Under the pieces are notes generated by a model. The model had not been told where the DNA came from, did not search any database, and saw only the letters and a list, made by a program, of their open reading frames with translations. Shown in pieces: positions 3,071 through 43,863 of a stretch of DNA of 64,000 bases. A program made the position numbers and the translations under genes. The DNA lies in NCBI GenBank assembly GCA_947652325.1, contig CANTCQ010000003.1, forward strand, positions 64,890 to 128,889, in the 5' to 3' direction. Each line of letters begins with the position of its first letter. Within the stretch, counting starts at the first letter, position 1. The stretch comes from an uncultured Mycoplasmatota bacterium (GTDB lineage: Bacteria > Bacillota_I > Bacilli_A > RF39 > UBA660).

Positions 3071-3085
3071 GCATACTATTATAAT
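3057..3085 (+). promoter_or_regulatory. sigmaA-type promoter of the hrcA operon
   Basis: TTGACA at 3057-3062, 17-nt spacer, TATAAT at 3080-3085. Confidence 0.8.
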
Positions 3086-3089
3086 GGTA

Positions 3090-3116
3090 TTAGCATTTTA
3101 AAAAAAAGAGTGCTAA
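3090..3116 (+). promoter_or_regulatory. CIRCE HrcA operator
   Basis: TTAGCATTT-N9-GAGTGCTAA between the -10 box and the SD of hrcA. Confidence 0.85.
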
Positions 3117-3128
3117 AGAGGTGATGAA

Positions 3129-4136: not shown

Positions 4137-4148
4137 GAAGGAAATTTT

Positions 4149-4715: not shown

Positions 4716-4737
4716 AAAAAGGAAAGAGGAAAGAAAA

Positions 4738-6567: not shown

Positions 6568-6613
6568 AGAAAGTTCTAGGAAACTAGAGCTTTTCTAAAA
6601 TTAAGGAGAAAGA

Positions 6614-9509: not shown

Positions 9510-9524
9510 GTACTTTTTATTTTA
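9492..9524 (+). terminator. rho-independent terminator after dnaJ
   Basis: Two copies of the self-complementary AAGTACTT, 8 nt apart, followed by TTTATTTT. Confidence 0.7.
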
Positions 9525-9544
9525 CAAACATAAAAAATCATAAT

Positions 9545-9573
9545 TTGACAACATAGAATAGGATTGTTATACT
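9545..9573 (+). promoter_or_regulatory. sigmaA-type promoter
   Basis: TTGACA-N17-TATACT, 27 nt upstream of the 9600 ORF. Confidence 0.65.
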
Positions 9574-9599
9574 TATATATATAATAAGAGGTTGATTAT

Positions 9600-10871
9600 A
9601 TGGCGAGTAAGTACAAAATAAGCCTTTATTTTATTGGAATATGCTTAATATTTTCATTATTTTTGTTAGCATCTTTTGTTAAATTTAAAAAAGAAGAAAA
9701 AGAAAGAAGTCCTTTGGTAATTGTTAATAATGGTTTATCTATTAATTTTCTACAAGGAAAAAACATTAAAATAGCCAATAATACCAAAAAATATACATTT
9801 TCGATAACCAATAACACAGAAGAAAAGAAATTTTATCACATTTCATTAGAAAATATAAAATGCAATCAAGAAAATATCACTTATGATTTAAAAGAAAAAA
9901 ATAATAAATTAAACATAACTAAAAATAGTTTTTCAGAAGAAAATAAATATTTAGCAAACTTTATTGAAATCAAGGCAAGAGAGACACACTTTTATGAACT
10001 AACAATTTATGAAAAAGAAAAATTAAATCTTAATGCTGAAATTACAATTGGTATGCAAGAAAGTCAAGAAGATTACTTTGCAAATACAATTTTAAAAAAT
10101 AACGAAATAAAAAAATTGCCACTGACAAAAGTTGGAGAAGAAATTGCCGCTACAAATGAAGGCTTAATTGAAACAAAAGATGATTATGGTATCTCTTACT
10201 ATTTTCGAGGAAATATACCAAATAATTACGTTTTATTTGCTAATCTTTTATGGCGGATTGTAAAAATAAATGGGGATGGGACTATTAAACTCGTTTTAAA
10301 TGATTATATAGAGACTCCATCAAATTTTTACAATGGTGAAGAAAAATTAAGTTTAGAAGAAAAATTAAATTTTACAAAAACAAACATAAATAAAAGCTTA
10401 GAAGATTGGTATCAATTAAAATTAAAAGACTATGAAACATATTTGATTTCCCATAAATATTGTGTTACTGATACAATTTTGAATGAATTTGAACAAACAA
10501 AAGAGTATGTAGGAAAAAACAATTTAAAAAATAGTAGCAAATTAGAATTAAAGTGTAGTAGTTTAGGATATCCTGCTCGAATCGGTTTATTATCAGCAGA
10601 AGAAATAGCTTTTGCGGGTGGGTCCCTAAATGAAATCAATACCAATTATTATTTGTATACACCAGAAAAAGAAACTGGTTGGTGGACCATAACACCAAGT
10701 TCTAGTGATGCAACAAATGTTATTTATTTTGAAGTAAACACGAGTGGCAAATTACAAGAAGAAAGTTTAGGAAGCTACTATAGAGGTTTAAAACCAGTTA
10801 TTAATTTAATAAAAAAAACATCGGTAACGGGTAATGGAACAAATATAGACCCCTATATTATAAAAGAATGA
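9600..10871 (+). CDS. membrane-anchored extracytoplasmic protein, unknown function
   Basis: N-terminal TM segment (ISLYFIGICLIFSLFLLASFV). The C-terminal motif block RIGLLSAEE...GWWTITP...GLKPVINL resembles a recurrent extracellular domain pattern, but I did not assign a family. Confidence 0.6.
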   Translation: MASKYKISLYFIGICLIFSLFLLASFVKFKKEEKERSPLVIVNNGLSINFLQGKNIKIANNTKKYTFSITNNTEEKKFYHISLENIKCNQENITYDLKEKNNKLNITKNSFSEENKYLANFIEIKARETHFYELTIYEKEKLNLNAEITIGMQESQEDYFANTILKNNEIKKLPLTKVGEEIAATNEGLIETKDDYGISYYFRGNIPNNYVLFANLLWRIVKINGDGTIKLVLNDYIETPSNFYNGEEKLSLEEKLNFTKTNINKSLEDWYQLKLKDYETYLISHKYCVTDTILNEFEQTKEYVGKNNLKNSSKLELKCSSLGYPARIGLLSAEEIAFAGGSLNEINTNYYLYTPEKETGWWTITPSSSDATNVIYFEVNTSGKLQEESLGSYYRGLKPVINLIKKTSVTGNGTNIDPYIIKE

Positions 10872-10904
10872 TTTACATCTTTTTTTGTAAATCATTTTGT
10901 TTTA
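10869..10904 (+). terminator. rho-independent terminator
   Basis: tgatttaca / tgtaaatca 9-bp stem starting at the TGA stop, followed by a T run. Confidence 0.8.
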
Positions 10905-10945
10905 TTTACTCTTACATGATAGCTATGCTAAAATGTATTTAGGAA

Positions 10946-11458
10946 GTGATGGAAATGAAGCAACTTATAAAAGATATAATCAGTTTTTCTAAAAGTTTAA
11001 CTGCTGTTGATTTACTTTTGTATTTTGCTGTATTGACACTTATTATTTTAATTGTATCGCTTATTTATATTATAAAAACAAGCGATGATGAAGAAGCAGA
11101 AGATTTAATTGAAAATAAAACGACTTTTTTTAATCAAGAAGATGTGGATATAAAAGAAATTATTACAAATATAGAAAATCGAGAAGAGACAGTATCAGAA
11201 TTTACAGATTATGAATCTGAACAAGAAGAAAAAGCCATTATCAGTTATGAAGAACTTTTACAAAAAAGCAAACAAGGAAAGTTAAATTATGAAGAAGAAA
11301 AAGTTGTAAATAATGAAGTAATTGTAAAAAAGGTAAGTTTAGATAACGTAGTAAATAAAGAAGAAAAAGAAGAAACACCTAAAGGAAGTCTATTTCATTA
11401 TGAAAAAGAAGAAGCATTTTTAAAAGCTTTACAATCTTTAAACGAATTATTAAACTAA
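10946..11458 (+). CDS. single-pass membrane protein with acidic cytoplasmic/extracellular tail
   Basis: 170 aa with one TM segment (LLLYFAVLTLIILIVSLIYII) followed by D/E/K-rich sequence. Confidence 0.55.
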   Translation: MMEMKQLIKDIISFSKSLTAVDLLLYFAVLTLIILIVSLIYIIKTSDDEEAEDLIENKTTFFNQEDVDIKEIITNIENREETVSEFTDYESEQEEKAIISYEELLQKSKQGKLNYEEEKVVNNEVIVKKVSLDNVVNKEEKEETPKGSLFHYEKEEAFLKALQSLNELLN

Positions 11459-11480
11459 AAGGCAAAAGCCTTTTTTATCT
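11457..11480 (+). terminator. rho-independent terminator
   Basis: aaaaggc-aaaa-gcctttt stem-loop followed by a T run. Confidence 0.7.
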
Positions 11481-11542
11481 TTTGGATTTAATTGAATAAA
11501 CATACAAAATGCGATATCATAAAACCAAGTAGGTGAAAAAGA

Positions 11543-12502
11543 ATGAAAGATATTAAAATTAAAAATGCAATGGCATTGTGTCATATCTTAGAAAATTATG
11601 AAATTTTTATAAAAGATGTAAAAAGCTTAAGAAATGAAAAAAGTTTCAATTCTTATTTTTTAGAAGATATAAAAAAGATATCTTTATCAAAAAATAGATT
11701 TGTAAGAAAAAATGTAAAAAAGTTTTATGAAAAATACCAACGGATAATTGATACAATTAACAAATATGCAAGAATTGATGTCTTTTTATTTGAAGCTCTT
11801 TATGATAGAGTAGATAAAGAAAGTGCAGAAGATTCTATGTATACTTTATATGAATACCTATTCAAAAATAAAGGAAATATAGAACAAATACTTAATGTAT
11901 TAAATCGTCTTAAGGCTTTAGGGTTCGATTCTATTCATTTGGATGAAACAGCAAATTTTACAAAAGAAGAGTATTGTATTTTTACAAATCCAATAGAAAA
12001 TTATGACAGCAATTTCGCCTATTTAGAAAATCTAGAAAGAATTCCGGCATATGGAATAAGCAAAATAAGATATAAATCCAATGGGTCACACTACAAAATA
12101 AAATTAGGTTTTTCACTTGGAAATTATCAATTTTTAAGAGACAATACAATCTATTTAAATAGTTTACTTTTTGATATATCTTTATTACCACTTCTAGCAT
12201 CTCCTGATAAGCTGTTTACAGAAATAACGATTTTAAAAGAAGAAAAAGAAGAAGCGTGTAAGAAAATAACGAATGCAGTGAATTTAAATATAAAACTTAT
12301 CGAATTAGAAAAAGAATTATATATTATAAAAAAAATGATACATAATTTATCTTTAACTCCAAATACTGAAAATTTAGTAAATAGTCTTTCTTATATAGAA
12401 TTAGAACTTGTAAGAATGAAACAAATTAGCAGCGATTATGATAAAGAATTAATCGAAGGCGACTCTTCTATTACAGAAGAAATACTAAAAAAGAAGAGAT
12501 GA
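11543..12502 (+). CDS. hypothetical protein (319 aa)
   Basis: Long ORF with SD (aggtgaaaaaga). No motif recognised. Confidence 0.55.
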   Translation: MKDIKIKNAMALCHILENYEIFIKDVKSLRNEKSFNSYFLEDIKKISLSKNRFVRKNVKKFYEKYQRIIDTINKYARIDVFLFEALYDRVDKESAEDSMYTLYEYLFKNKGNIEQILNVLNRLKALGFDSIHLDETANFTKEEYCIFTNPIENYDSNFAYLENLERIPAYGISKIRYKSNGSHYKIKLGFSLGNYQFLRDNTIYLNSLLFDISLLPLLASPDKLFTEITILKEEKEEACKKITNAVNLNIKLIELEKELYIIKKMIHNLSLTPNTENLVNSLSYIELELVRMKQISSDYDKELIEGDSSITEEILKKKR

Positions 12503-12526
12503 TTTATAAGAGGGTGAATGTATATG
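12480..12526 (+). repeat. 47-bp direct repeat, copy A (3' end of the 11543 ORF, SD and start of mtaB)
   Basis: aaatactaaaaaagaagagatgatttataagagggtgaatgtatatg matches 13951-13997 at 43 of 47 positions. Confidence 0.9.
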
Positions 12527-13813
12527 AAATTCTACATCATGACACTAGGTTGTAAAGTAAATATTTACGAAAGTGAAGTTATAAAAGAAAATCTTTTAAA
12601 GAATAACTATATTTATGAAAATAGTATGGAAAATGCAGATATTATCATTATAAATACTTGTACTGTAACAAATATGGCAGATGCTAAATCAAAAAAAATG
12701 GTACGTAGAGCAAAGCGATTTGGAAAAATAGTTATCGTTTGTGGATGTAGCAGTGAAAATAACCAAAAAAATTACCAAGAAATGGGAATCGATATTTTAA
12801 TCGGGAATAAAGACAAAAGTAAAATTCATATGTTAATTCAAGAATATATAAAAACTAATAAACCCACTACTAGATTTTATAAAGAAGAAAATTTTGATTT
12901 TGAAGATATGAGTGTTGAAAAATTTCATAGTCATACAAGAGCTTTTATAAAAATTCAAGATGGTTGTAATAATTTTTGTAGTTATTGTATAATACCGCAT
13001 GTGAGAAAAAATATACGAAGTAAAAATTTTAAACAAACCATTCAAGAAGCAAAAATTCTGGTACAAAATGGCCATAAAGAAATCGTTTTAACAGGAATTC
13101 ATACAGGTTCTTACTACACAGAAGATAATCATGATTTAGCAGATGTCATTCATGAAATTAGCAAAATAGAAAATATAAAAAGAATACGTATTTCCTCAAT
13201 TGAAATTACAGAACTTAATAGTAAAATGCTAAATGAAATAAAAAATAATTCAAAAATAGTAAATCACTTTCATATTCCTTTACAAGCAGGAAGCAATGAA
13301 ATATTAAAACGCATGAATCGAAAATATGATTTAGACTATTTTAAAAAGAAAGTGGAGGAAATAAGAGCAATAAAACCAGAAGTAAGTATTACCACTGATG
13401 TAATTGTTGGACATCCCTATGAAACAAAAGAACTTTTTGAAAAAACAATAGAAACTTGTAAGAATATAAATTTTTCAAAAATTCATGTATTCCCTTATTC
13501 AAAAAGAGAAAAAACACCATCAAGTAAAATGCCGATGCAAATAGATGATAAAGAAAAAAAAGAGAGAAGTAAACATTTAAATAAAGTAAGTAAAGAATTA
13601 GAAGAAGCATTTTATAAAAGATTTATTAATAAAGAGGTGGAAGTACTCATCGAGGAAAATAAAAAAGAAGGAAGCTGTGGTTTTACCTCAAATTACCTAA
13701 AAGTTCAAGTAGCAGAAAAATTAAAGAAAAATGAAATTTACAAGATAAAAATTACAGAATATAAAGAAGGAGAACTTATAGGAATAAAAAAAGAACAAAT
13801 TACATGTAAATAG
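12524..13813 (+). CDS. mtaB: tRNA threonylcarbamoyladenosine methylthiotransferase MtaB (MiaB-like radical SAM)
   Basis: N-terminal UPF0004 domain (TLGCKVN), radical-SAM motif CNNFCSYC and a C-terminal TRAM-like region. The position after dnaJ matches B. subtilis yqeV. Confidence 0.85.
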   Translation: MKFYIMTLGCKVNIYESEVIKENLLKNNYIYENSMENADIIIINTCTVTNMADAKSKKMVRRAKRFGKIVIVCGCSSENNQKNYQEMGIDILIGNKDKSKIHMLIQEYIKTNKPTTRFYKEENFDFEDMSVEKFHSHTRAFIKIQDGCNNFCSYCIIPHVRKNIRSKNFKQTIQEAKILVQNGHKEIVLTGIHTGSYYTEDNHDLADVIHEISKIENIKRIRISSIEITELNSKMLNEIKNNSKIVNHFHIPLQAGSNEILKRMNRKYDLDYFKKKVEEIRAIKPEVSITTDVIVGHPYETKELFEKTIETCKNINFSKIHVFPYSKREKTPSSKMPMQIDDKEKKERSKHLNKVSKELEEAFYKRFINKEVEVLIEENKKEGSCGFTSNYLKVQVAEKLKKNEIYKIKITEYKEGELIGIKKEQITCK

Positions 13814-16876: not shown

Positions 16877-16905
16877 TTGACAAATGCTCGGGGGGGGGGT
16901 ATATT
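16877..16905 (+). promoter_or_regulatory. sigmaA-type promoter whose 17-nt spacer contains a G10 tract
   Basis: TTGACA at 16877-16882, spacer aatgctcGGGGGGGGGG, TATATT at 16900-16905. Confidence 0.7.
16890..16899 (+). repeat. G10 homopolymer (candidate slipped-strand phase-variation tract)
   Basis: Ten consecutive G between the -35 and -10 hexamers. Confidence 0.95.
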
Positions 16906-16936
16906 AATAGGAAAATTCATAGAAAAGGGGATGAAC

Positions 16937-17869
16937 ATGTTAAATTCTAAAGAAGAAAGGGAAATAAATAAAATATTGGAAAGTTCAGAATTAACAAGAA
17001 ATTTATCTTTTGCTGTACAAAAAGAAGAAATAGTAAACAAGTTTCCAAAATCGTTTTTTTCAGAAGAAAATCAGTCCTTATTTGAGTATGTATTTGATTT
17101 GTTACATAGATTGCCATTTGGGATTATAAAATCGAGATATGTTGAAGAATGTTTAATGTATTTATATGAGCAAGAAAATCCCTATTTAGTAAGCCCAACA
17201 AAAGAATTGTATCCTATAGTTGCCAAAAAACACGCAAAAAAGCAAGAACATATTGAAAGAGGTTTGAGATATCACATAACAAAAAATTTTCTAAATATCA
17301 ATCAAGATATTAGAGAAGAATATTTTACAACACCTGAAGGTAAAATTCCAACCAATTTCTTATTTCTTTCTAATTTAGTAGAATATATAAGGGTGCATTA
17401 CTACAGTTATTCCACACCTACCTTTACAAAAGAGCAAATAGAATATTTTATTGCAAATATGAAAAAAGAAGACAATGCAATGTATATTATAGAACAAGCC
17501 CATCGAAAAAAAGAACTCGAAAAGTTTTTGCAGGAGTACCTAGGACTTTTTCAATATCAAGCAGCAGATTCTCACTTTTTACTTACTGAGTTAATTTTGC
17601 ATTATATAGATAATCCTGTACCTTTATTATTAGACTTTTATAGAGACGAATTTATTTGTAACAGGTGGAAAATTTATACTAAACAAGATTTTCTTCAAAA
17701 AATGGCTTGTATAACTCTTTCTATTGGAAAGGCTTATCCACATATAAACCCAGAAATATACAAAGTAATTTTTGGAGATTGTGAACTTCATAGAGGAACT
17801 GCTGAGTTTATAAGAACAGTTAGTAAATACTTAAAAGAGCAAGAGTTTGTAAGAAGTTTAAAAAGATAG
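16937..17869 (+). CDS. orphan Spo0A C-terminal (DNA-binding) domain protein, two tandem Spo0A_C-like domains, no receiver domain
   Basis: LYPIVAKKHAKKQEHIERGLRYHITKNF ... IPTNFLFLSNLVEYI parallels Spo0A LYPDIAKK..ttasrVERAIRHAIevaW...PTNSEFIamvadkL. A second, weaker copy ends ...GTAEFIRTVSKYL. The start is set at the Met after the SD aaaagggg. The track start at 16877 runs through the promoter. Confidence 0.65.
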   Translation: MLNSKEEREINKILESSELTRNLSFAVQKEEIVNKFPKSFFSEENQSLFEYVFDLLHRLPFGIIKSRYVEECLMYLYEQENPYLVSPTKELYPIVAKKHAKKQEHIERGLRYHITKNFLNINQDIREEYFTTPEGKIPTNFLFLSNLVEYIRVHYYSYSTPTFTKEQIEYFIANMKKEDNAMYIIEQAHRKKELEKFLQEYLGLFQYQAADSHFLLTELILHYIDNPVPLLLDFYRDEFICNRWKIYTKQDFLQKMACITLSIGKAYPHINPEIYKVIFGDCELHRGTAEFIRTVSKYLKEQEFVRSLKR

Positions 17870-17940: not shown

Positions 17941-20484
17941 ATGAAACGCTTAGAAGTAGACAAAGAAAAATTAAGTCCAGGGATGCGACAATATTATGAT
18001 ATAAAAGAAGAATACCAAGAAGAACTTTTATTTTTTCGATTAGGAGATTTTTACGAACTATTTTTCGAAGATGGTGAAACTGCTGCAAGAGAGCTTGAAC
18101 TTACTTTAACAAGCAAAAATGCAGGGCTAGAGGAAAGAATTCCTATGTGCGGAGTTCCTTTTCATTCGGTAAAGCCTTATATAGAGAAACTAGTAAACAA
18201 AGGTTATAAAGTAGCTTTATGCGAACAATTAGAAGACCCAAAAAACACCAAAGGAATGGTAAAAAGAGGAGTCGTCCAAGTTGTATCGAAAGGTACTATT
18301 ATTGATACTGAACTTTTAAATGAACATGACAACAACTATATTGCAAGTATTCTAGACTTTTCTTTTACCTATGTGTTATGTTATGCTGATATTTCTACTG
18401 GAAGCTTAAATATAATGAAGATAGAACACAAAAAAGAAAAATTATTAAATGAACTTTTAAATTTAAAAATAAAAGAAGTTTTATTAAAAGATGGTACAGA
18501 TACCGAACTTATTGGTATTTTAAAAGGAAATTATGGAATTGAAATATCCATATCTAATTATTTTTTAGAAAATGGTTGTGAAGCATTAATAAATGGTGTA
18601 GAAGATATACGATTTAAAGAAGGAGTTAAGCATTTACTTTACTATTTAATAGTTCGTGAACTAAAAGATGTTTCCCATATAAAAGAAGTAAATATCATAA
18701 ACAAAGAAGATTATTTAGAAATGGACACACATACTATCCGTAATTTGGAATTAGTAGAAACATTACGCTTAAAAGAAAGAACGTATTCTTTAATTTGGCT
18801 TTTAGATAAAACCAAAACCAGCATGGGAAGTAGAAAGTTAAAAGACTACTTATTACATCCTTTAAAAAACTTAGAAAAAATAGAAGAACGTTATGATAAA
18901 ATTATTGCTTTGAATAATCATTTTATAACCAAAGATGAAATCCGCGAGTATTTACATGAAATTTATGATATAGAACGATTATGTGGGAAGATTGCTTGTA
19001 ATTCAGTAAATGCTAGAGACCTTTTGCAATTAAAAAATAGCCTAAAAGTTTTACCAAATATTAAAAAAAATGTAGAAGAATTAGATTTTAAATATAAAAT
19101 AAATACGCATCAAGGCATTTATGATTTACTTGAAAATGCGATTTATGAAAATCCACCTGTTACTTTAAAAGAAGGATTTTTAATAAAAGAAGGATTTAAT
19201 CAAGAATTAGATGAATTAAAAGAAATTAGAAGTGGCGGCAAAACGTTTATCGCCGATTTTGAAACAAAATTAAAGGAAAATACAGGAATAAAAACACTAA
19301 AAGTAGGTTATAACCGTGTTTTTGGTTATTACATTGAAGTAAGCAAAGGAGCCGTAAAAGATATACCATTTAATCTAAATTGGGAACGTAGGCAAACCCT
19401 TACAAATTGTGAACGTTTTATTTCACCAGAATTAAAAGAAAAAGAAGCACTTATTTTAAATGCAGAAGAAAAAATAATCAATTTAGAATACAATTTGTTT
19501 ATAGAAATAAAAGAGCAAATAAAAAAAGAATTAATTTCCTTAAAAGATACGGCTGAAATAATTAGTGAATTAGATGCTTTAGCGAGTCTAGCTGTTTGTG
19601 CTGAAGAATACAATTTAGTAAGACCAGTATTAAATAAAGAACATACGATTGAAATAAAAGAAGGATTTCATCCTGTAATAAAAAAAGTAAGCAATAATGC
19701 CTATGTACCTAATGATTGCATAATGAAAAAAGATACAACAACCCTTTTAATAACCGGTCCTAATATGAGCGGCAAGTCAACTTATATGCGACAACTAGCT
19801 ATTACAAGCATTATGGCTCAAATGGGTTCATTTGTACCAGCCTCTAGTGCAACTCTTCCAATCTTAGATAAAATATTTACTCGTATTGGAGCAAGTGATG
19901 ATTTAGTAAGCGGAGAATCAACATTTATGGTGGAAATGAACGAAGCAAGAAACGCTATTCTAAACGCGACAGAAAATTCTTTAATTCTTTTTGATGAATT
20001 AGGAAGAGGGACAGCCACTTATGATGGCATGAGTCTTGCCCAAGCGATTTTAGAATACGTAAATAAAAATATTAAATGCAAAACGTTATTTTCCACTCAT
20101 TACCATGAGCTTACATCCTTAGAAAAAGAAATACCTTGCATTAAAAACATTCATGTTGCAGCACATGAAGAAAATGGAAACATTACTTTTTTACATAAAA
20201 TAAAGGCAGGAGCAGTGGACAAATCTTATGGTATTCATGTAGCAAAACTTGCAGGAATGCCACAAGAACTAATCAAACGAGCAAGTGAAATCTTATCGTT
20301 TTACGAGAGTCATGAAAAGAAAAAGAACAAAGAAGAAAATGTGCAATTAGAAATGGTCTTTGAAGAAAAAAAAGACAAAGATTCTGTAAAAGAATTTTTA
20401 GAAAACATTGACCCAGTCTATATGACACCTATAGAGGCTATCAACAAATTATATGAACTAAAAGAATTAATAAAAAAGAAATAA
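17941..20484 (+). CDS. mutS: DNA mismatch repair protein MutS
   Basis: 847 aa with N-terminal mismatch-binding sequence (TPGMRQYYDIKEEY..FFRLGDFYELF), Walker A GPNMSGKST and FDELGRGT. Confidence 0.97.
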   Translation: MKRLEVDKEKLSPGMRQYYDIKEEYQEELLFFRLGDFYELFFEDGETAARELELTLTSKNAGLEERIPMCGVPFHSVKPYIEKLVNKGYKVALCEQLEDPKNTKGMVKRGVVQVVSKGTIIDTELLNEHDNNYIASILDFSFTYVLCYADISTGSLNIMKIEHKKEKLLNELLNLKIKEVLLKDGTDTELIGILKGNYGIEISISNYFLENGCEALINGVEDIRFKEGVKHLLYYLIVRELKDVSHIKEVNIINKEDYLEMDTHTIRNLELVETLRLKERTYSLIWLLDKTKTSMGSRKLKDYLLHPLKNLEKIEERYDKIIALNNHFITKDEIREYLHEIYDIERLCGKIACNSVNARDLLQLKNSLKVLPNIKKNVEELDFKYKINTHQGIYDLLENAIYENPPVTLKEGFLIKEGFNQELDELKEIRSGGKTFIADFETKLKENTGIKTLKVGYNRVFGYYIEVSKGAVKDIPFNLNWERRQTLTNCERFISPELKEKEALILNAEEKIINLEYNLFIEIKEQIKKELISLKDTAEIISELDALASLAVCAEEYNLVRPVLNKEHTIEIKEGFHPVIKKVSNNAYVPNDCIMKKDTTTLLITGPNMSGKSTYMRQLAITSIMAQMGSFVPASSATLPILDKIFTRIGASDDLVSGESTFMVEMNEARNAILNATENSLILFDELGRGTATYDGMSLAQAILEYVNKNIKCKTLFSTHYHELTSLEKEIPCIKNIHVAAHEENGNITFLHKIKAGAVDKSYGIHVAKLAGMPQELIKRASEILSFYESHEKKKNKEENVQLEMVFEEKKDKDSVKEFLENIDPVYMTPIEAINKLYELKELIKKK

Positions 20485-20499
20485 AGAAAGGAAAATTAA

Positions 20500-21189
20500 A
20501 TGAAACTAGCAGAAGCAATGACAAAAATTTTTACGCCTCAAATTGCAGAGGAAAATAAAAAAATAGAATTTCAGCAAATAAAAATAATTCTTGGATACTT
20601 TTTAGAAAAAAATATAAACAGTATTTTTAAAAGAGTAGAATTTTCACCCTTAGAAATGGAACTGAAACGTGTAGACGAAAATGGAAAAGAGAACGTATAC
20701 ATGCGATTTGGAAATGTAGAATACTATTTATTTTTAGATAACCAAAACCATTTAATTATGAAAAATAACTCTAAAGGAGGTATTTTATTTCGAATTGATT
20801 TTAGTAATAAAATGGCAGAAAATTATTTAGTATCCAAACAAGATGCAGTTATGATAAAAGAATACCAAGAAATAAGTTTAGAAATACCAGTTTTTAGGTA
20901 TCACAAGACAACAGAAGGAATTATGATAGATATATATTCCAAAACGGTAAAAGCAAAACCAAAAACAAACAGGTCTTCAAATAAAACAGAACAATTAGAA
21001 ATTCATTTCATAGAGGAGACAAAGACCAATGTTTTTGAAAATTGGTGGAACAAAATTTTTAGAAAAGATACCATTACTATTCAAAAAGAAAATTCAGAAG
21101 AAAGTTTGTTTTATCACTTACCTGAAATATATGAAGCATTAGAAGAAAAAACTGAAACTTTAACACCGGTAAGAAGAAAATGTAAGTAA
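20500..21189 (+). CDS. hypothetical protein (229 aa) in the position where mutL usually follows mutS
   Basis: ORF with SD (aaggaaaa). No GHKL or MutL motif seen. Confidence 0.5.
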   Translation: MKLAEAMTKIFTPQIAEENKKIEFQQIKIILGYFLEKNINSIFKRVEFSPLEMELKRVDENGKENVYMRFGNVEYYLFLDNQNHLIMKNNSKGGILFRIDFSNKMAENYLVSKQDAVMIKEYQEISLEIPVFRYHKTTEGIMIDIYSKTVKAKPKTNRSSNKTEQLEIHFIEETKTNVFENWWNKIFRKDTITIQKENSEESLFYHLPEIYEALEEKTETLTPVRRKCK

Positions 21190-21193
21190 GAAC

Positions 21194-21224
21194 AAAACCT
21201 AGTTTAAACTAGGTTTTTTCTTTT
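21194..21224 (+). terminator. rho-independent terminator
   Basis: aaaacctagttt / aaactaggtttt perfect palindrome followed by a T run. Confidence 0.85.
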
Positions 21225-21254
21225 GCTTATGATATAATAAACATGGTGATTTTG

Positions 21255-21650
21255 ATGACACTAAAAAGAAGTGAATTAAGAGAAAAATGTATGATAATCC
21301 TTTACCAATACAACTTATTAAAAGAAAACAAAATACAGGTAGATATAGAGGAAATCATCAAAGACAATATAGAAATTGAAAACGAATTTGTAAAAGACAT
21401 TGTATATGGAGTGATTACCCATGAAAGTGAATTGAATACACTTGCTAATCAATATATCAAAGACTGGACTATCGATAGATTAGACAAGACAGGTGCCTCT
21501 ATTTTGCGTATTGCTCTTTTTGAAATAAAATACACAGATACGCCAGAAATTGTCGTAATTAACGAAGCGGTTGAACTATCCAAAAAATACAGTGATGATG
21601 CGGTTCGAAAAATTATTAATGCCGTTTTAGATAAAATGATTAGAGAATAA
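21255..21650 (+). CDS. nusB: transcription antitermination factor NusB
   Basis: ~131 aa containing RSELREKCMIILYQ...DRLDKTGASILRIALFEI...VVINEAVELSKKY. Confidence 0.9.
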   Translation: MTLKRSELREKCMIILYQYNLLKENKIQVDIEEIIKDNIEIENEFVKDIVYGVITHESELNTLANQYIKDWTIDRLDKTGASILRIALFEIKYTDTPEIVVINEAVELSKKYSDDAVRKIINAVLDKMIRE

Positions 21651-35895: not shown

Positions 35896-36696
35896 ATGTC
35901 AAAAACAAAAGGAAAATCAATATGTATTTTTTCAGCAAAAGGAGGAGTAGGAAAAACAATAACCACCATCAATATGGCGGGAATATTTGAACATTTAGAA
36001 AAAAAAGTGTTAATCGTTGATTTAGATTTATCAAGTGGAGGAATTAGTGTTGCTTTAAATCGTCCATTTGAAAAAACAATCTATAATTTTGTAGATGACT
36101 ACAATAACAATCGATATAAAGACTTTAAAAGCTATATTACAAAATACGATGAATATATTGATATATTGCCAAGCCCAAAAGACCCAAGGCAAGCCAATAA
36201 GATTGATTCCAAATACATCGATATATTAATTGATAAAGCAGAATCAAACTATGATATTGTTTTGCTTGATACAAATCATATTTTAAATGAAATAAACATT
36301 GTAACATTAGATAAAGTAGACAACATTTTATTTGTGATGACAAACGACCCATTAGACATAAAAAATATGAAATCTTTGCTTAGTATTTTTCATGATTCCA
36401 ATATTACAAATTTTAAAATTCTTTTAAACAATAGCACCAATCCATTTAAAGATTATTTTTCTATATTTGATATTAGAAATATTATTAAAGCCAATATTGA
36501 TTATACTATTACTTCTAGTTTTTATTTAAAAAATATGGATTCTTATGTAATGGATGGACAAATCATTACATTATTAAAAAATATGCCTTCTACCTTTAAT
36601 AAAGATTATGAAACCTTTATGATGATTGCCTTAGATACAATAGGACACACTGAAAAAGAAAGAAATAAACTAGAAGAAGGGGAAACAAATGAATAA
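35896..36696 (+). CDS. tadZ: TadZ/CpaE-like ParA/MinD-family ATPase
   Basis: Deviant Walker A SAKGGVGKT and the VLLDTN motif. It sits before the secretion ATPase. Confidence 0.75.
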   Translation: MSKTKGKSICIFSAKGGVGKTITTINMAGIFEHLEKKVLIVDLDLSSGGISVALNRPFEKTIYNFVDDYNNNRYKDFKSYITKYDEYIDILPSPKDPRQANKIDSKYIDILIDKAESNYDIVLLDTNHILNEINIVTLDKVDNILFVMTNDPLDIKNMKSLLSIFHDSNITNFKILLNNSTNPFKDYFSIFDIRNIIKANIDYTITSSFYLKNMDSYVMDGQIITLLKNMPSTFNKDYETFMMIALDTIGHTEKERNKLEEGETNE

Positions 36697-38029
36697 AACA
36701 AGTTTAATAGATGCCTTTAATATTGAAAGAAAAACCACGAAAATAGAGGCAGTTACAGATTATGAAATTTTCTCTGATAAAAAATTATTAGATGAATTAA
36801 GAACACAAATTATCGAAAATATTATCGACAAAGAAATTCCAGAAGATAAAATATTAAATGAATTTATAAATGATGAAATAGATGCTACTATTGAAGGATA
36901 CGATTTAACAAACTTAGAAAGAAGCCATTTATTCAATTTAATAGACAATGAAATAAATGGCTATGGACCAATAACAGAACTTTTAAAAGATAAAAATATT
37001 ACGGAAATTATGGTAAATAGTCCTAATGAAATTTATATTGAAATTGATGGACAATTGATTAAAGATGAAAGTATTTCCTTTATTAACGAAGAACACATTG
37101 TAAGAACCATACAAAGACTTATTGAACCACTGGGAAGAACAATAGATGCTGCAAATCCTATGGTGGATTCTAGACTGCAAGATGGCTCTCGTATTAATGC
37201 TGTAATTCCGCCTCTTTCAACAAGAGGCCCAATCATTACAATTCGTAAATTTAAAGAAACAATGAAAAATATCGAAGATTTAATTCGCATAGGTTCTTTA
37301 ACTCCATATATGGCAAGATTTTTAGATGCATCAGTCCGCGGAAAATTAAACATTATTGTTTGTGGAGGAACAGGGAGTGGAAAAACATCTCTTTTAAATG
37401 TATTAAGTGGCTTTATTAGTAGTCAAGAAAGAATTATAACCATTGAGGATGCTGCAGAACTTCATTTGCACCAAGAACATGTAATTTCTTTGGAAACAAG
37501 AGTAACGAATTATGATAGTACAGGAGAAGTGACCATCCGAGATTTAGTCAAAAATTCGCTTCGTATGCGACCAGATAGAATCATTGTAGGAGAAGTGAGA
37601 GGAAAAGAAGCATTTGATATGTTGCAAGCCATGAACACTGGTCATGATGGGTCACTCACAACTTTACATGCAAATGGACCTTTAGATGCCCTAAATCGTT
37701 TAGAAACGATGGTATTAATGAGTGGCTTAGATATTCCAATAAAAGCAATTCGGGAATACATAATAAACGCGATTGATTTAATAGTGAATATTGAAAGAAT
37801 GAGTGATGGAAAACGAAAAATTACATCCATCTCTGAAATTGAAGGTTTTCAAGAGGACCGTATAAAACTAAGAGAAATATTTAAGTTTACTCCTAAAGGT
37901 TTAACAGACAATGGTGAAGTGGATGGAGAATTTATGTTATACAAAACAACTCCTCGAGTATACAAGAAAATAGTGGCCCGAGGAATAAATGATTTAGAAG
38001 ATATGTTTGGAAAAACAAATAAAAATTAA
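36689..38029 (+). CDS. tadA: TadA/CpaF type II/IV secretion ATPase
   Basis: Walker [10 protein letters not shown], Asp box ITIEDAAEL, Walker [13 protein letters not shown] and His box [13 protein letters not shown]. Confidence 0.93.
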
Positions 38030-38048
38030 AAGAAAGGAGTAATCTAAT

Positions 38049-39053
38049 ATGAAAAGTGCACTTTTAAGTACTTTCTTAATTCCTATTATTTTAATTTGCC
38101 TTGTCTTAGGAATTATATATTCTATTCTAAAACAAATGCATTTTACGAAACTAGAAAAAAGATTTGAAGCATTTAGTTTACAATCCGATAAAGAACAAAT
38201 AATTTCTATTTTTGATGAGATGTCAATTTTGTTTTGGAAAACCATCCATAAACTTTCTTTTCTATTTGAAAAATCACAAGTTTTAACAAAATATGCAAAA
38301 AAATATGAACGATTTATTCCCTTTGAAGAAAAAGAAAGAAAAGAAAGCATAGATTATATAGCTATTAAGGTAATTATAGGAATTGTTTTCGTTCTATTAA
38401 ATATAGCAAGTATATTTATACATAAAAAGACAAATTTCATAACCTTATTCTGTTCCTTTTTAGTTGGTTTCTTTCTTCCAGATATTACGTTAATGACAAA
38501 ATTTAAAAGCAAAAGAAAACAAATTGAAGAAGAATTACTAAAAGCTATTATTATTATGAACAACAGTTTTAAATCGGGTCGCAACATTATGCAAGCAATT
38601 CAAATAGTAAAAACTGAACTAGAAGGTCCTATTGCAGATGAATTTAAAAAAATTTATTTAGACATCACTTATGGATTAAGTTTAGAAGTAGTATTCAATC
38701 GTTTTTATGAAAGAGTAAAATTAGAAGATGCCAAATACATCGCTTCTTCTCTTACTTTATTAAGTAAGACTGGAGGAAATATAGTGAGCGTTTTTGAAAG
38801 CATCGAAAAATCTTTTTTTGATAAGAAAAAACTTCAAAATGAAATGAAAAGTTTAACGGCAGCAAGTGTTTTTGTCTTTCGGGTCCTAGTTGCTTTACCT
38901 CTCTTTTTTTCTTTCATCATATTTATTTTAAATCCCACTTATTTTAATCCACTATTCTCATCAGGATTCGGAATATTACTTTTACTAGCCATTGTATTTT
39001 TATATATAAACTACATTTTGATAATTAGAAAAGCAATGAAGGTGAAAATGTAA
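38049..39053 (+). CDS. tadB: TadB (type II secretion system F-domain) inner-membrane platform protein
   Basis: 334 aa with N- and C-terminal TM segments flanking a T2SSF-like cytoplasmic domain (MNNSFKSGRNIMQAIQ). Confidence 0.8.
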   Translation: MKSALLSTFLIPIILICLVLGIIYSILKQMHFTKLEKRFEAFSLQSDKEQIISIFDEMSILFWKTIHKLSFLFEKSQVLTKYAKKYERFIPFEEKERKESIDYIAIKVIIGIVFVLLNIASIFIHKKTNFITLFCSFLVGFFLPDITLMTKFKSKRKQIEEELLKAIIIMNNSFKSGRNIMQAIQIVKTELEGPIADEFKKIYLDITYGLSLEVVFNRFYERVKLEDAKYIASSLTLLSKTGGNIVSVFESIEKSFFDKKKLQNEMKSLTAASVFVFRVLVALPLFFSFIIFILNPTYFNPLFSSGFGILLLLAIVFLYINYILIIRKAMKVKM

Positions 39054-39757
39054 TGAAAAAAAATAAGCATTTAATGTATAGAATATATAGAAAAAAAAAT
39101 ATAATACGCATTCAAAACAAAATGAGGCTTTTAGGAACGAATTTAAAATATGATGAAGCTACATTTTTAAATACTCGAATGATTTTGACGATTATTTTAT
39201 TTCTTTTACTATTATTATTTTCTAACCATGGTTATATTTTAGCACCTATATTTGCCATTGTCTTTTATTTAATTTGTGAATATATTGTTTTAGATATTCC
39301 TATAAAAAAAAGAGGCATAGCATTAGAAGAGGAGGCAATATTCTTTTTTGAAGTATTACTATTAACCTTAGACTCTAGCAAAAATTTAAAAAGTGCATTG
39401 GAACTAACCACACAGAATATAAAGAGTGAACTATCAAGCGAATTTCAAAAAATGTTAGAGGAAATAAAACTTGGGAAAAGTTTTACAGAAAGTTTAGAAG
39501 CCATGAAAGCACGAATACCGAGTGACACAATTAAGAATATTATTTTAAATTTAACCGAATCAAGTATATTTGGAAATAGTATTACAGAATCATTAAACAA
39601 TCAACTTGATTATTTGCGGGACAAAAAAATGTTCGAAATAAAAGCTGAGATATCAAAACTTCCTACTAAAATAAGCATATTATCTGTTATCTTTTTCATT
39701 CCCATTATGTTGTTGATTATTCTTGCCCCCGTTTTAGTAGAATTTTTAATTGGATAG
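39053..39757 (+). CDS. tadC: TadC platform protein
   Basis: 234 aa. It is a T2SSF-like paralogue, and its start overlaps the tadB stop (ATGTAATG). Confidence 0.75.
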   Translation: MKKNKHLMYRIYRKKNIIRIQNKMRLLGTNLKYDEATFLNTRMILTIILFLLLLLFSNHGYILAPIFAIVFYLICEYIVLDIPIKKRGIALEEEAIFFFEVLLLTLDSSKNLKSALELTTQNIKSELSSEFQKMLEEIKLGKSFTESLEAMKARIPSDTIKNIILNLTESSIFGNSITESLNNQLDYLRDKKMFEIKAEISKLPTKISILSVIFFIPIMLLIILAPVLVEFLIG

Positions 39758-39840: not shown

Positions 39841-42123
39841 ATGTATAAAAAAATTTATGTTGATAAAATAAACGATTTACCAGAGCCATACGATGCAAAA
39901 CTAAATAAGGAAGCATTTGAAAAAATGGCGAATGGCGATACTTCGATTAAAAAGGATATTATTGACCATAATTTAAGATTTGTTTTAAATCAAATTTATA
40001 ACTATTTTTCCAAAACTTCTTATGAAACAAATGAATTATTTAGTATAGGAACAATAGGATTAATAAAAGCTATAGATTCATTTGATATTAAAAAAGGAAA
40101 TGCATTTGCCACGTATGCCACGAGATGTATTCATAATGAAATTTTAATGTTTATGCGTCACGAGAAAAAATTTTCAAAAGAAGAAAGTATGAATAAATCT
40201 TTATATCATGATAAAGATGGAAAGGAAATAATTTTAGAAGAAATTATTGCTGATAATAATATAAATATTCTAGATGATTATATCGTAACCGAAGAAATTG
40301 AAAATAACGAAAAATTAATAGAAAAAATGAAAGAAATTTTAAATTTTTTAAAAGAACGTGATAAACAAATAATTTTATATTTATACGGATTGACAGATGG
40401 AAAAAAACATTCTCAATCTGAAGCAGCAAATAAATTTAATTTGTCGCAAAGCATAATTTCTCGAATCGAAAGAAAGTGTTTGAAACTTTTAAAAGAAATA
40501 TTATATAATGAAATGAACACCACAATAGAATATAGCGATTTTGATACGACTGAAATAGATCCATTATTAAATTCAAAATTATTTATAGAATTTATAAATT
40601 TATTTCCAGAAGAAATGCACAAATCGTATTGTATTGAAAAAGGGATAAGAATAAAAAATAAAAAAGTATCGAAAATTATTAATTCTAAACTAACTAATAA
40701 TAGTAAACAAGAGATAAAAACTATGGAATCTCATTTAAAATTTATGATAGATGAATATTTTAATGGAATAAAACAAAACAAAAATAAAAAAGAAATTTTG
40801 GAAAGTTTAATATCTAAAATGAAAAATAGAAGTTTATTATTTCGTTTTTCTGAATATTCAAATATGGAAATAATATATGCTTTAAGATATTTAACAGAGG
40901 AAGAGCAGCAAATTATTATAAAAAGACATGGACAGAATTTAAACAATTTTTTCTCATTTTCAAAAAAGAAATATCAAAAACAATTTAGAAAATATACACT
41001 TGCAGTACAAAACTTAGAAATAATTCTTTTCTTAATAAAAAATAAAGAACGTTTTAAAAAAGATTTAGAAATATCCGAAGATAAAAGTCTTATCGATAAT
41101 CTAAAATATTTAACAATAAAAGAAAAAAACATTTTGTGTTCGGGGGGGGGGTATACTAAGGAAACAAAAACATATTATGACATACTTGCAATCATAAAAA
41201 GAAAAAAAGAAGGAAAAATATGTAAAGTATCTCCTTTATTTCAAAAATATGCAAAAGAAGAAATAAGAATGGCATTACCTATACTAAGTAAAGAAGAGCT
41301 AATACTATTTCTAAGTCGTCATGGAGAGAATTTAGAACAAAAAAATCCTTGGCCAACAGATCAAAAATCTAGTTATTATTATAGGCGTTATGCAAAAATT
41401 GTAAAAAAAATAATAAAGCATATTGAAAGTAAAAAAGAAGTATTAGTTACTGAATTTTGTCTAAAATATGGATTTAATTCAGTGAGCGAAGCAAAGGAAA
41501 CCATAGCCTTATTAGCAAAATCGGAACAAGATATTATTTACCTAAAATGGGGTGAAGACTTAAATTTTGTAAAATCATTTCCAAGAAATAATATAAAAAA
41601 ATCATTTGCTGAGTATTCATGGGAGTATGAAGAAGCCATTTATCATTTAAAACAAATACAAAAAAAACAAAATGCAAATAGAAAAGAAGAGCAAATAGTC
41701 ATTATTGACCAACCATCAAAAAAAATAAAAAATGATTTACTAGAAGAAAAACTATCTTTAAAAAAAGCTGAAATCTTTAATAATTTATTTGAAGTATATC
41801 AAACACTTATTGATAAAAAAATCATAATAGAACTAATTAATAAAACAGTAGTAAATTTACGCATTTCAAATAATGAATATTTTCATATCATCGAAAATGA
41901 AATATTTATGAATTTAGCAAATCAATACAAAGAAAATATAGATAATGAAAAAGGACACATGCTAATAAACCACATAAAAGAAATGTTTTTGATAAAGATT
42001 AAAGCAAAAAATCCCCTATATACAAAAGAAAAAATTGCATATGCGATAGAAGAAGTTTTTAAAAATTATACGGGAACGAGTAATTTTGAATTCGAAATAA
42101 CTCTTTATTTAAAAAATAGGTAA
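39841..42123 (+). CDS. sigmaE/sigmaK-like sporulation-type sigma-70 factor fused to a ~530-aa C-terminal extension of degenerate region-4-like repeats
   Basis: Residues 1-225 align by eye with B. subtilis SigE/SigK: LPEPYD, MANGD, HNLRFV, SIGTIGLIKAIDSF, ATYATRCIHNEILMFMR, and region 4 LKERDKQIILYLYGL...SQSIISRIERKCL. Four further modules follow (ALRYLTEEEQQIIIKRHGQNL, NLKYLTIKEKNILCSGGGY, ALPILSKEELILFLSRHGENL, ALLAKSEQDIIYLKWGEDL). Confidence 0.8.
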   Translation: MYKKIYVDKINDLPEPYDAKLNKEAFEKMANGDTSIKKDIIDHNLRFVLNQIYNYFSKTSYETNELFSIGTIGLIKAIDSFDIKKGNAFATYATRCIHNEILMFMRHEKKFSKEESMNKSLYHDKDGKEIILEEIIADNNINILDDYIVTEEIENNEKLIEKMKEILNFLKERDKQIILYLYGLTDGKKHSQSEAANKFNLSQSIISRIERKCLKLLKEILYNEMNTTIEYSDFDTTEIDPLLNSKLFIEFINLFPEEMHKSYCIEKGIRIKNKKVSKIINSKLTNNSKQEIKTMESHLKFMIDEYFNGIKQNKNKKEILESLISKMKNRSLLFRFSEYSNMEIIYALRYLTEEEQQIIIKRHGQNLNNFFSFSKKKYQKQFRKYTLAVQNLEIILFLIKNKERFKKDLEISEDKSLIDNLKYLTIKEKNILCSGGGYTKETKTYYDILAIIKRKKEGKICKVSPLFQKYAKEEIRMALPILSKEELILFLSRHGENLEQKNPWPTDQKSSYYYRRYAKIVKKIIKHIESKKEVLVTEFCLKYGFNSVSEAKETIALLAKSEQDIIYLKWGEDLNFVKSFPRNNIKKSFAEYSWEYEEAIYHLKQIQKKQNANRKEEQIVIIDQPSKKIKNDLLEEKLSLKKAEIFNNLFEVYQTLIDKKIIIELINKTVVNLRISNNEYFHIIENEIFMNLANQYKENIDNEKGHMLINHIKEMFLIKIKAKNPLYTKEKIAYAIEEVFKNYTGTSNFEFEITLYLKNR
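41142..41151 (+). repeat. G10 homopolymer inside the sigma gene (codons S-G-G-G)
   Basis: tcGGGGGGGGGGtat. With G9 or G11 the frame reaches a stop within 16 or 3 codons respectively (my translation). Confidence 0.95.
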
Positions 42124-42155
42124 AAAGGTAAACACAATAAATGAACTTATGCAAT

Positions 42156-42183
42156 TTGACAAAAAAGAAATATATGGTAAAAT
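42156..42183 (+). promoter_or_regulatory. sigmaA-type promoter candidate with extended -10
   Basis: TTGACA-N16-TAAAAT, preceded by TGg. Confidence 0.5.
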
Positions 42184-42216
42184 AAAACCCACATTTTTGA
42201 AAAAAGGGGTTTTTTT
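42184..42216 (+). terminator. terminator-like hairpin whose 3' arm contains the SD of the second sigma gene
   Basis: AAAACCC...GGGGTTTTTTT. GGGG at 42206-42209 is the only SD-like element before the ATG at 42220. Confidence 0.6.
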
Positions 42217-42219
42217 AAT

Positions 42220-43863
42220 ATGGATTTAGAAGAAATATTAGCATTTTTAAATAATATTGATAAAAAAAAAGAAGGAGACTTTGAAAAAAAATGGCATTCA
42301 TTTGAAAATATTTATTTAAGTGAAGAACAAATAAATATTTTAATAAAAGATCCAATATGCCAAAGAGTATCAAAGTATATATTTGAATCTATAGAAGAAA
42401 TTTCAGAAAATTCCTATGAAAAATATATAAAAAATAATAATTTATTAAGAATTTTAAACAATATCTACATAGAAGAAAATAGTAAAAAAATGCAAAAATC
42501 ACTTTCTCAAGAGGAAGAGTTAGAATTATTAAAACAAATGGCAAATGGTGATAAACAAGCAAGAGCGAAGTTAATTGAAAAGAATTTGGGTTTAGTCAAA
42601 TTTTGTATCAATAATCTTGCAAAGTATTATAATTTGTCAAATATTTCTCTTGCTAATTTATATGATGATTTATTTCAAGAAGGAGTAGAAGCTCTTATAA
42701 AAAGTTTAGATAAATTTGATTATACAAAAGGATACAGAATAGCAACTTATACAATTTGGAGTATTAAAGCGGCCATTAATCAATATTTAGAAAAACAAAG
42801 ATTTCAATTAAAAGTTAGTAGAAATAAAATGGTTGAAATTAAAAAAATGCATAAAATCATCGGAGAATTATCTTTAGAGGGATATAATAATTTTTCATCC
42901 CAAACACTAACTGAAAAATTAGAAGTTGCAAAGGAACAACTAGCTGAAAATATACAATTATGTCAAAGAACAATATATTTAGATTCTTTTTTAGAAGAAA
43001 CAAATTTACATGAAGTGTTAAAAAATGATGGAATAGAAATTGAAAAAGATTATGAAAAAAAAGAATTTTATCAAACATTCAGAGAGATAATTAAAAATTG
43101 TGTTACAAATAAAATTATAAAAGAGCAAGAATTCCTAGTAATTTCTTTGCGTTATGGGCTAGAAGATGGAGAGCCAAAAAAATACAAGGAAATTGGAAAA
43201 ATAATAGGTAAAACTTGGCAAAGAGCACAACAAATTCATGATGAAGGTATAAAAAAATTGAAAAAATATAATAAAATAAAAGAATTTGGTCAAGAAAATA
43301 ATTTATATATGAATAGAAAAAGAAAACCAAAGATTATACATTCAATTGCAGAGTTAAAAGAGAAATATCCACCTGTAACCGATGAACAAATACAAGAAGG
43401 ATTGTCCTATTTAACAAAAAAACAACAAGAAGTAATATATAATTGTTTAAAAGAACAACAAGAAATTAAATCCTCATCAAAGGAATACCAAAGTTTAATA
43501 AATGGAATAAGAAAACTAGAGGAGTACATAGTAAATAAATTAAAAATAACTCCCCAATTAGAAACGGAAATATTGGGGAATCTAAAACTTTTAACAATAA
43601 CAACTTGGCAAGAAGAATTAAAAGAACAACAAAAAAGTCTAATTCATAGAAAATACCAAACTGTATATGGAGATATAATTCAATCACAAGAATTAGAAAA
43701 CAGTATAAATCAAGCTTTTGAAAATCAAAAGTTAGAAAGTTCATTTAGAAGTAAAAAATTACAAATAGAAGAAGCATTTTTTATTATATTAATAGAAAGA
43801 TTAAAAAAAACAACAGAGGAATTTGAATATAAAAATTTACTTCTTATATTTTTAGAATATTAG
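42220..43863 (+). CDS. RpoD-like sigma-70 family protein with ~110-aa N-terminal and ~180-aa C-terminal extensions
   Basis: Region 2 (LIEKNLGLVKFC...DLFQEGVEALIKSLDKFD...YRIATYTIWSIKAAINQYL), a region 3-like segment and region 4 (EQEFLVISLRYGLEDGEPKKYKEIGKIIGKTWQRAQQIHDEGIKKL). Confidence 0.8.
   Translation: MDLEEILAFLNNIDKKKEGDFEKKWHSFENIYLSEEQINILIKDPICQRVSKYIFESIEEISENSYEKYIKNNNLLRILNNIYIEENSKKMQKSLSQEEELELLKQMANGDKQARAKLIEKNLGLVKFCINNLAKYYNLSNISLANLYDDLFQEGVEALIKSLDKFDYTKGYRIATYTIWSIKAAINQYLEKQRFQLKVSRNKMVEIKKMHKIIGELSLEGYNNFSSQTLTEKLEVAKEQLAENIQLCQRTIYLDSFLEETNLHEVLKNDGIEIEKDYEKKEFYQTFREIIKNCVTNKIIKEQEFLVISLRYGLEDGEPKKYKEIGKIIGKTWQRAQQIHDEGIKKLKKYNKIKEFGQENNLYMNRKRKPKIIHSIAELKEKYPPVTDEQIQEGLSYLTKKQQEVIYNCLKEQQEIKSSSKEYQSLINGIRKLEEYIVNKLKITPQLETEILGNLKLLTITTWQEELKEQQKSLIHRKYQTVYGDIIQSQELENSINQAFENQKLESSFRSKKLQIEEAFFIILIERLKKTTEEFEYKNLLLIFLEY

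Follow-up and report, generated by a model that had tools for sequence, protein, structure and literature searches.

The 64,000-nucleotide stretch analysed here (the window; contig CANTCQ010000003.1 of assembly GCA_947652325.1, from an uncultured Mycoplasmatota bacterium) carries on its forward strand a gene of the sigma-70 family (39841..42123), inside which ten consecutive G residues (G10, 41142..41151, forward strand) lie in frame. The gene encodes a protein of 760 aa in which a long C-terminal extension follows a short SigE/K-like core, and the exact protein occurs on 14 contigs. Its assignment to the sigma-70 family follows from matches to two Pfam models that both exceed the gathering score: sigma region 2 at aa 41-110 (39961..40170; PF04542, E 1e-12) and sigma region 4 at aa 167-219 (40339..40497; PF04545, E 1e-11). 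Nothing else was matched in the Pfam scan of the 760-aa protein, including region 3 and region 1.2. The parts of this gene, the neighbouring tad and second sigma genes and the other G10 tract of the window, all described below, likewise lie on the forward strand.

The extension is made up of repeat modules resembling region 4, followed by a conserved C-terminal domain. Three modules are detected by a module hidden Markov model (HMM): aa 343-403 (40867..41049, E 1e-13, with the motif IIIKRHGQNL), aa 472-532 (41254..41436, E 7e-21, with FLSRHGENL, PWP and YYY) and aa 549-611 (41485..41673, E 6e-13, with IYLKWGEDL). Between the first and the second of these sits a degenerate, shortened module (aa ~415-460, 41083..41220) that bears the G10 tract and is not matched by the module HMM; in it SGGG stands where other modules have (L/S)R(H/Y)G (columns 490-504 of alignment A3). 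The first-pass annotation, which was made from the sequence of the window, had placed SGGG exactly where the other modules carry a conserved HG or WG, and this agrees with the alignment (LRYG, LRYG, LRHS and IRNG in A3; SRHG and KWG in the protein's own modules). The C-terminal domain (aa 616-760, 41686..42120) is modelled as six helices with a predicted local distance difference test score (pLDDT) of 89.8, and a fold search against the PDB returned no match with E <1.

When the extension (aa 226-760) served as query in an exhaustive phmmer search, 60 relatives were retrieved, mostly of 900-1450 aa, in which a sigma core is followed by many modules of ~61 aa and a C-terminal domain of ~130 aa. 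The module consensus is ..L..Q..IIYLRHG.NL..WP....YY..Y, and the module HMM finds 324 copies across 55 proteins; region 4 of the window protein is itself among the matches of this HMM (E 0.005), and the modules can accordingly be regarded as region-4-like. These proteins define an extended sigma family with an RpoD-like or SigE/K-like core, 2-17 modules and a six-helix C-terminal domain, and the window protein, having three HMM-detected modules and the C-terminal domain, belongs to it. Members are seen in the window at 39841-43863, in L100 at 2547-12662, and in L047, L020, L101 and L186. Literature searches found no description of the family, and Pfam has no model for it beyond regions 2 and 4. 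A word-indexed homologue search, probably swamped by low-complexity words, returned the protein's own cluster and one match to the core only, and its profile version did no better. A scan of the GTDB r232 representatives with a profile of the C-terminal domain (alignment A2) matched 600 stretches, none of them a relative, which indicates that the source species and its closest relatives are absent from those representatives. A metagenome scan with the family alignment yielded ordinary sporulation-type sigma factors only, with neither extension nor G10.

The tract begins at the third base of codon 434 (TCG GGG GGG GGG TAT) and encodes S434, G435, G436 and G437. The first-pass annotation had called such a run very unlikely by composition, and rightly so: the G+C content of the window is 27.4%, and the expected number of runs of at least ten G per 64 kb ranges from 0.0005 (zero-order model) to 0.001 (first-order model), as against two observed. 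The complete list of G/C runs of six or more in the window comprises G7 at 952, G10 at 16890, G10 at 41142 and C6 at 46876; of A and T runs of nine, the window holds four A9 and one T9. Codon usage adds to this improbability. In the long open reading frames (ORFs) of the window GGG accounts for 9.9% of Gly codons and TCG for 4% of Ser codons, and owing to this rarity the probability of the observed codon string, given the peptide SGGG, is ~3e-5.

Runs of 7-8 or more G/C within an ORF are the slip-prone repeats of contingency loci, and the tract exceeds this length. With G10 the 760-codon frame is open, as the same annotation had stated, and translation of the alternative lengths gives premature stops throughout: 451 aa for G9, 439 aa for G11, 438 aa for G8 and 452 aa for G12. 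The G11 frame ends in SGGGVY and a stop, as had been proposed, while the G9 frame ends in SGGGILRKQKHIMTYLQS with its stop 15 codons past the last Gly, one fewer than the 16 first counted, so that the product sizes are 439-451 aa and not ~437-449 aa. The further proposal that the truncated (OFF) forms keep the sigma core and lose the distal extension holds true: regions 2 and 4 are complete in the G9 and G11 products, the modules at aa 472-532 and aa 549-611 are lost from the OFF forms, and the C-terminal domain is absent from every one of them.

Comparison with other genomes favours the interpretation as a switch. Relatives sharing the short SigE/K-like core are P0011, P0018, P0021, P0043 and, found later, P0069 and P0074, and DNA was compared for all six. 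In-frame G10 tracts are present in L100 (NCBI GCA_964430695.1) at 3388 and 5941, in two genes that follow a tadC whose product is 69% identical to the TadC of the window, as well as in L105 (ENA ERZ12802742) at 2904 and in L187 (ENA ERZ14425208) at 4773. Inspection of the P0011 and P0043 genes revealed no G10. The four tracts of the relatives fall in the same alignment columns, in a linker just past the sigma core, with codon phases at the tract start of 2, 2, 1 and 3, preceded by R, W, S and S and followed by S, C, V and S. In every tract-bearing gene the gain or loss of one G brings a stop within 15 codons and leaves the sigma core complete; in the relatives this removes the whole extension, whereas in the window protein it removes the distal part.

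P0021 and P0074 (from L105 and L187) are syntenic orthologues of 62% identity; their tracts coincide in protein position but differ in codon phase, and lie between residues that are not conserved. Since ten identical bases have been kept at 62% identity in an AT-rich genome, selection appears to act on the DNA run itself, and the sequence comparison points to the run rather than the peptide as its object. Runs of at least eight G/C number five in 19.3 kb of family genes, compared with one in 387 kb of other low-GC sequence of the lineage, an enrichment of ~100-fold (Poisson P 2e-9) in which paralogues and orthologues do not count as independent origins. Over-representation and maintenance are seen in composition, codon choice, enrichment in the family and retention between the 62%-identity orthologues. 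According to the first-pass annotation, orthologues that lacked the homopolymer would have spoken against a switch; homologues in three other genomes carry it in frame. A tri-glycine in P0024 was considered as a further tract and rejected, being spelled GGC GGT GGA at a non-homologous position, and it serves as a control. P0074 is broken by a second frameshift ~950 nt downstream of its tract (L187, ~5700-5770), after which the modules carry on in the following ORF; as the contig has only 4x coverage, the frameshift is possibly an error.

Variation in tract length was read from assembled contigs of NCBI, ENA and Logan, that is, at the consensus level. Among more than 20 public assemblies, drawn from several projects (loci L001-L019 and L188-L195), the window species shows almost no single-nucleotide polymorphisms (SNPs): nine assemblies show no SNP over 6.6 kb, and ~8 kb around the sigma gene show scattered single differences only, counted where unambiguous, as the multi-sequence alignment of this region was distorted by the short contig L006. 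The nearest relatives are at 86-89% identity in RuvB (89% for rabbit-gut metagenome-assembled genomes (MAGs) labelled 'uncultured Bacilli', 87% for a mouse-gut MAG). In a species with so few SNPs, changes in tract length stand out cleanly.

At 41142 the G10 (ON) allele is found on at least 17 of ~20 informative contigs; 14 contigs encode the full 760-aa protein, and further copies are in P0003, P0004, L003 and L193. Two contigs differ. L189, a Logan contig of 22.6 kb (SRR25706250), begins 19 nt ahead of the tract and shows it as G9, the remaining 6.3 kb being identical to the window save for a 1-nt deletion that is the window's own; in L001 (ENA, 4x coverage) the tract reads GGGGTGGGG, 9 nt, and the gene is split into ORFs of 451 and 328 aa. 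L003 (SRR25706393) ends 9 nt past the tract. Contig ends less than one k-mer away from the tract are what the de Bruijn graph of a mixed G9/G10 population would yield, and poor read quality over poly-G could yield them too. As to the heterogeneity in length that the first-pass annotation had proposed to look for, the assemblies show G9 in L189, GGGGTGGGG in L001 and the contig breaks, set against G10 on at least 17 contigs.

The second G10 run of the window (16890..16899) also occurs as G9. It occupies most of the 17-nt spacer between TTGACA (16877) and TATATT (16905), a promoter with 11/12 consensus matches that lies upstream of a gene with a Spo0A_C domain (16931-17869). This sister tract is G9 in 2/9 assemblies, one of them a contig of 100 kb, and G10 in 7/9 including the window, it is the sole variable site in the 6.6 kb compared among the nine assemblies, and four contigs end within ~40 nt of it. 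Because its length varies in the midst of 6.6 kb without a SNP, G10 tracts in this organism can be taken to mutate far faster than single sites. A change to G9 or G11 would set the promoter spacing at 16 or 18 nt, and by analogy the sister tract resembles a phase switch that acts through promoter spacing, as at porA.

The flanks of the tracts at 16890 and 41142 are shared as TGYTC-G10-TATAYTAA, identical at 11/13 positions (empirical P ~2e-4); a common origin, a common mutational mechanism or a shared binding site might account for the likeness. GGAAA follows these flanks after a 2-nt gap at both sites (16885-16912 and 41137-41164). All six tracts (16890 and 41142 in the window, 3388 and 5941 in L100, 2904 in L105, 4773 in L187) have exactly 10 G in the majority allele and run as poly-G on the sense strand, never as poly-C.

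Downstream of the Spo0A_C-domain gene lies mutS (17941-20484), preceded by a terminator-like hairpin and by its own extended -10 promoter. A role of the sister tract in the control of mutS was rejected on account of this hairpin and of the separate TGATATAAT promoter between the two genes. No MutL motif was found anywhere in the window, and mutL is not next to mutS, so that mismatch repair in the organism is putative. The region that includes and follows mutS (17941-21650) further holds an ORF of 229 aa without assigned identity, a nusB-like ORF of 135 aa and an xseA-like ORF of 449 aa, the last two recognised by eye.

Taken together, the in-frame G10 in homologues of three genomes, the G9 allele of L189 and the variation of the sister tract support the reading put forward in the first-pass annotation: the tract at 41142 is a strong candidate for, and probably is, a slipped-strand contingency tract kept by selection, which toggles between the full-length protein and a form of ~440-450 aa. 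In this mechanism a hypermutable simple-sequence tract would be maintained within the gene by selection, and slipped-strand mispairing in replication would add or remove one G. With G10 (or G7, or G13) translation would read through to the 760-aa sigma factor, complete with core, region-4-like modules and C-terminal domain; in the G9 and G11 states it would meet a stop 2-15 codons further on, giving a protein of 439-451 aa that holds regions 2 and 4 without the distal modules and the C-terminal domain. Such a change in the DNA would be heritable and presumably reversible, so that a population would always hold a minority of the other form. Reversibility, the rate of switching, the role of the truncated protein (which might be inactive, deregulated or interfering) and the genes under the sigma factor's control are inferential parts of this proposal. 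Slippage in a sigma factor would, we infer, make a whole regulon phase-variable. More tentatively, and in our estimate less probably than not by a clear margin, this lineage of gut Bacilli may have built mutational switches into its transcription apparatus, the conserved G10 of a sigma subfamily dividing the core from the region-4-like modules and the C-terminal domain. Slippage might then convert a sigma factor that is tethered or regulates itself into a free core sigma (or a dominant-negative one) instead of just silencing it and, jointly with the G10 in the promoter of the Spo0A-like regulator, form a contingency network of regulators only, possibly governing the Tad pilus or differentiation.

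Several observations weigh against a switch. The site is mostly fixed at the consensus level (G10 on at least 17 contigs), and an exact look-up of the truncated proteins predicted for G8, G9, G11 and G12 showed that none is recorded as a called gene. The two variant alleles could stem from difficulty in sequencing or assembling poly-G, as the L189 contig starts at the tract and L001 has 4x coverage. The presence of mutS may damp slippage. Finally, each of the five genes with a tract is in frame in most of what was assembled, which implies that OFF cells, if any, are a minority or transient. G10 predominates, and among the gut populations sampled the full-length protein is evidently the favoured form.

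The best-surviving alternative, itself improbable, is recoding during expression, in which the DNA stays G10 and RNA-polymerase slippage or a ribosomal -1/+1 frameshift yields a fixed minor isoform of 439 or 451 aa, the tract being conserved since both isoforms are needed, as for tau and gamma of dnaX. That G10 is the majority allele in nearly every assembly and in each of the five genes fits this view, as does the early end of the shifted frames in every homologue, which would produce a defined short isoform; moreover, a G run lets tRNA-Gly re-pair in any frame, in the manner of X XXY YYZ slippery sites. However, programmed frameshifting pairs a slippery run with a stimulatory structure, and of these the slippery run is present whereas no downstream stimulatory RNA structure was found (109 nt, minimum free energy -7.9 kcal/mol, z -0.46 relative to shuffled sequence). 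The sister tract lies in a promoter spacer that is not transcribed, yet it varies in the DNA, a G9 allele exists in DNA at 41142 itself (L189), and G10 is inherently unstable in replication, so that switching at the DNA level is expected regardless. Recoding and DNA slippage are not mutually exclusive.

A second and still less probable alternative holds that the tract is a DNA-level signal, for example for the binding of a protein or as an element of an internal promoter, embodied in the 23-nt motif shared with 16890. It draws on the flank identity described above, on the TATACT downstream of the 41142 tract, which resembles a -10 box, and on the context TCC-G10-TATCTAA in L105. Nevertheless, the tracts of L100 and L187 precede TTCTTA, TTGCTC and TCTAAT, not TATA, and the second sigma gene, located downstream, has a strong promoter of its own (42156-42183). 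An internal sigma-70-type promoter at the intragenic tract was rejected, as the promoter scan calls none at 41142 and a spacing of 16-18 nt leads to no -35 element.

Marginally less credible than a DNA signal is the notion that the tri-glycine is a hinge, neutral or structural, encoded by chance in G-rich codons, without consequential switching. Gly-Gly-Gly is plausible as a flexible linker and nearly all assemblies are in frame, but in an AT-rich genome like this one such codons would be chosen with P ~3e-5, the run continues beyond the codons of the three Gly and always reaches exactly 10 G, in codon phases that vary between genes, it is retained between 62%-identity orthologues whose adjoining residues are not conserved, and the control tri-glycine of P0024 is spelled with mixed codons. 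A sequencing or assembly artefact arising from two-colour chemistry, suggested by the known tendency of such chemistry to yield poly-G and by contig breaks at the tract, is refuted for the tract itself, where its probability is negligible, and is conceivable for the G9 and GGGGTGGGG variants: artefactual poly-G is found where reads or contigs end and does not leave a frame of 760 codons intact, whereas the same in-frame 10-mer recurs in assemblies of NCBI, ENA and Logan that are independent of one another and stem from several projects, and in-frame G10 occupies homologous positions in other species.

Directly upstream of the sigma gene lie tadA (T2SSE ATPase) and tadB and tadC (both T2SSF) (36689..39757), and farther upstream in the Tad pilus operon are genes for TadE and a CpaE-like ParA, joined in L186 by Flp; the sigma gene is thus indeed next to a pilus operon, as had been surmised. 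Extended sigma genes usually lie between tadC and ruvA, and the order tadC-sigma-ruvA is conserved in L100, L101 and L186. Synteny of the sigma gene with the Tad operon holds in four genomes and does not extend to the L105/L187 orthologues. A functional tie of the sigma factor to the pilus may be suggested, solely on grounds of synteny.

Downstream of the gene follow a second extended sigma gene (42220..43863) and then ruvA and ruvB. The second sigma gene, served by the promoter at 42156-42183, is truncated in the window by a 1-nt deletion at 43842 (CC to C) that shortens its product to 547 aa, the form on 18-19 other contigs having 591 aa; the deletion, present on 3 contigs, is either a real variant or an assembly error of one sample. 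In L100 five sigma ORFs stand in a row, among them an RpoD-type paralogue (7872-9707) split by an in-frame TAA within the conserved WWIRQ motif (TGG TGG ATT AGA TAA), likely a pseudogene in a fast-evolving sigma array. Shorter G runs occur elsewhere: within 909-972 of the window, a G5 lies one base upstream of the TATAAT box of a TTGACA-18-TATAAT element and G7 at 952-958 is the Shine-Dalgarno sequence of the ORF at 970-2175, and G6 runs serve as Shine-Dalgarno sequences of L100 sigma genes (7854 and 9776).

Among known systems, the closest are the poly-G and poly-C contingency loci of Campylobacter jejuni, Helicobacter pylori, Neisseria and Haemophilus, which undergo translational phase variation by slipped-strand mispairing. 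Examples from C. jejuni are summarised in PMC7677240. The sigma tract shares with these loci an intragenic run of at least eight G, far longer than composition predicts, in which a change of one G leads to an early stop and whose length may differ between otherwise identical genomes. It departs from them in its host, an uncultured low-GC gut member of the Bacilli that possesses mutS, in its target, a sigma factor rather than a surface or glycosylation gene, with an OFF product that keeps the complete sigma core, and in its distribution, the tract being conserved across species in one gene family and ON dominating nearly all assemblies. Homopolymer phase variation, textbook for the surface genes of a few pathogens, would here concern sigma genes of uncultured AT-rich gut commensals.

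Promoter-spacer homopolymers are known from the poly-G/C tracts of porA and opc in N. meningitidis and the poly-C of the fim genes in Bordetella. The resemblance in this case is to the sister locus and not to the sigma tract: the run fills a TTGACA-17-TATATT spacer with both G9 and G10 alleles observed, and the target is a Spo0A_C-domain regulator. With respect to domain architecture, extracytoplasmic function (ECF) sigma factors with regulatory C-terminal extensions, such as ECF41 and ECF42, likewise fuse a sigma core to an extension, and on this precedent truncation is expected to alter activity rather than simply to destroy the protein. In contrast to these, the core described here is not of the ECF type and the extension consists of region-4-like repeats and a domain without a PDB fold match; no homology of the window extension to ECF extensions was found. 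A large unannotated family with a sigma core, 2-17 region-4-like modules and this C-terminal domain is flagged beside Tad pilus operons.

Phase-variable regulators are represented by the Mod methyltransferases of phasevarions and by FlgS/FlgR of C. jejuni, where homopolymer switching controls the sigma-54 flagellar regulon (PMC7677240), and the expression of sigma-H in Staphylococcus aureus resembles phase variation by rearrangement, not by a repeat (PMC7911514). As in these systems, a single regulator switched by a repeat or a rearrangement would impose heterogeneity on many genes simultaneously; the difference is that the repeat lies inside the sigma factor gene itself, and literature searches found no homopolymer switch within a sigma factor gene. 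What is new is a conserved homopolymer switch candidate at the core/extension boundary of an undescribed extended sigma family of uncultured gut Bacilli. If the proposal is correct, slippage by one base reprogrammes the promoter set of a subpopulation, a form of bet-hedging at the level of RNA polymerase specificity, and a contingency network of regulators only, should one exist in this commensal, would amount to a phasevarion based on sigma factors.

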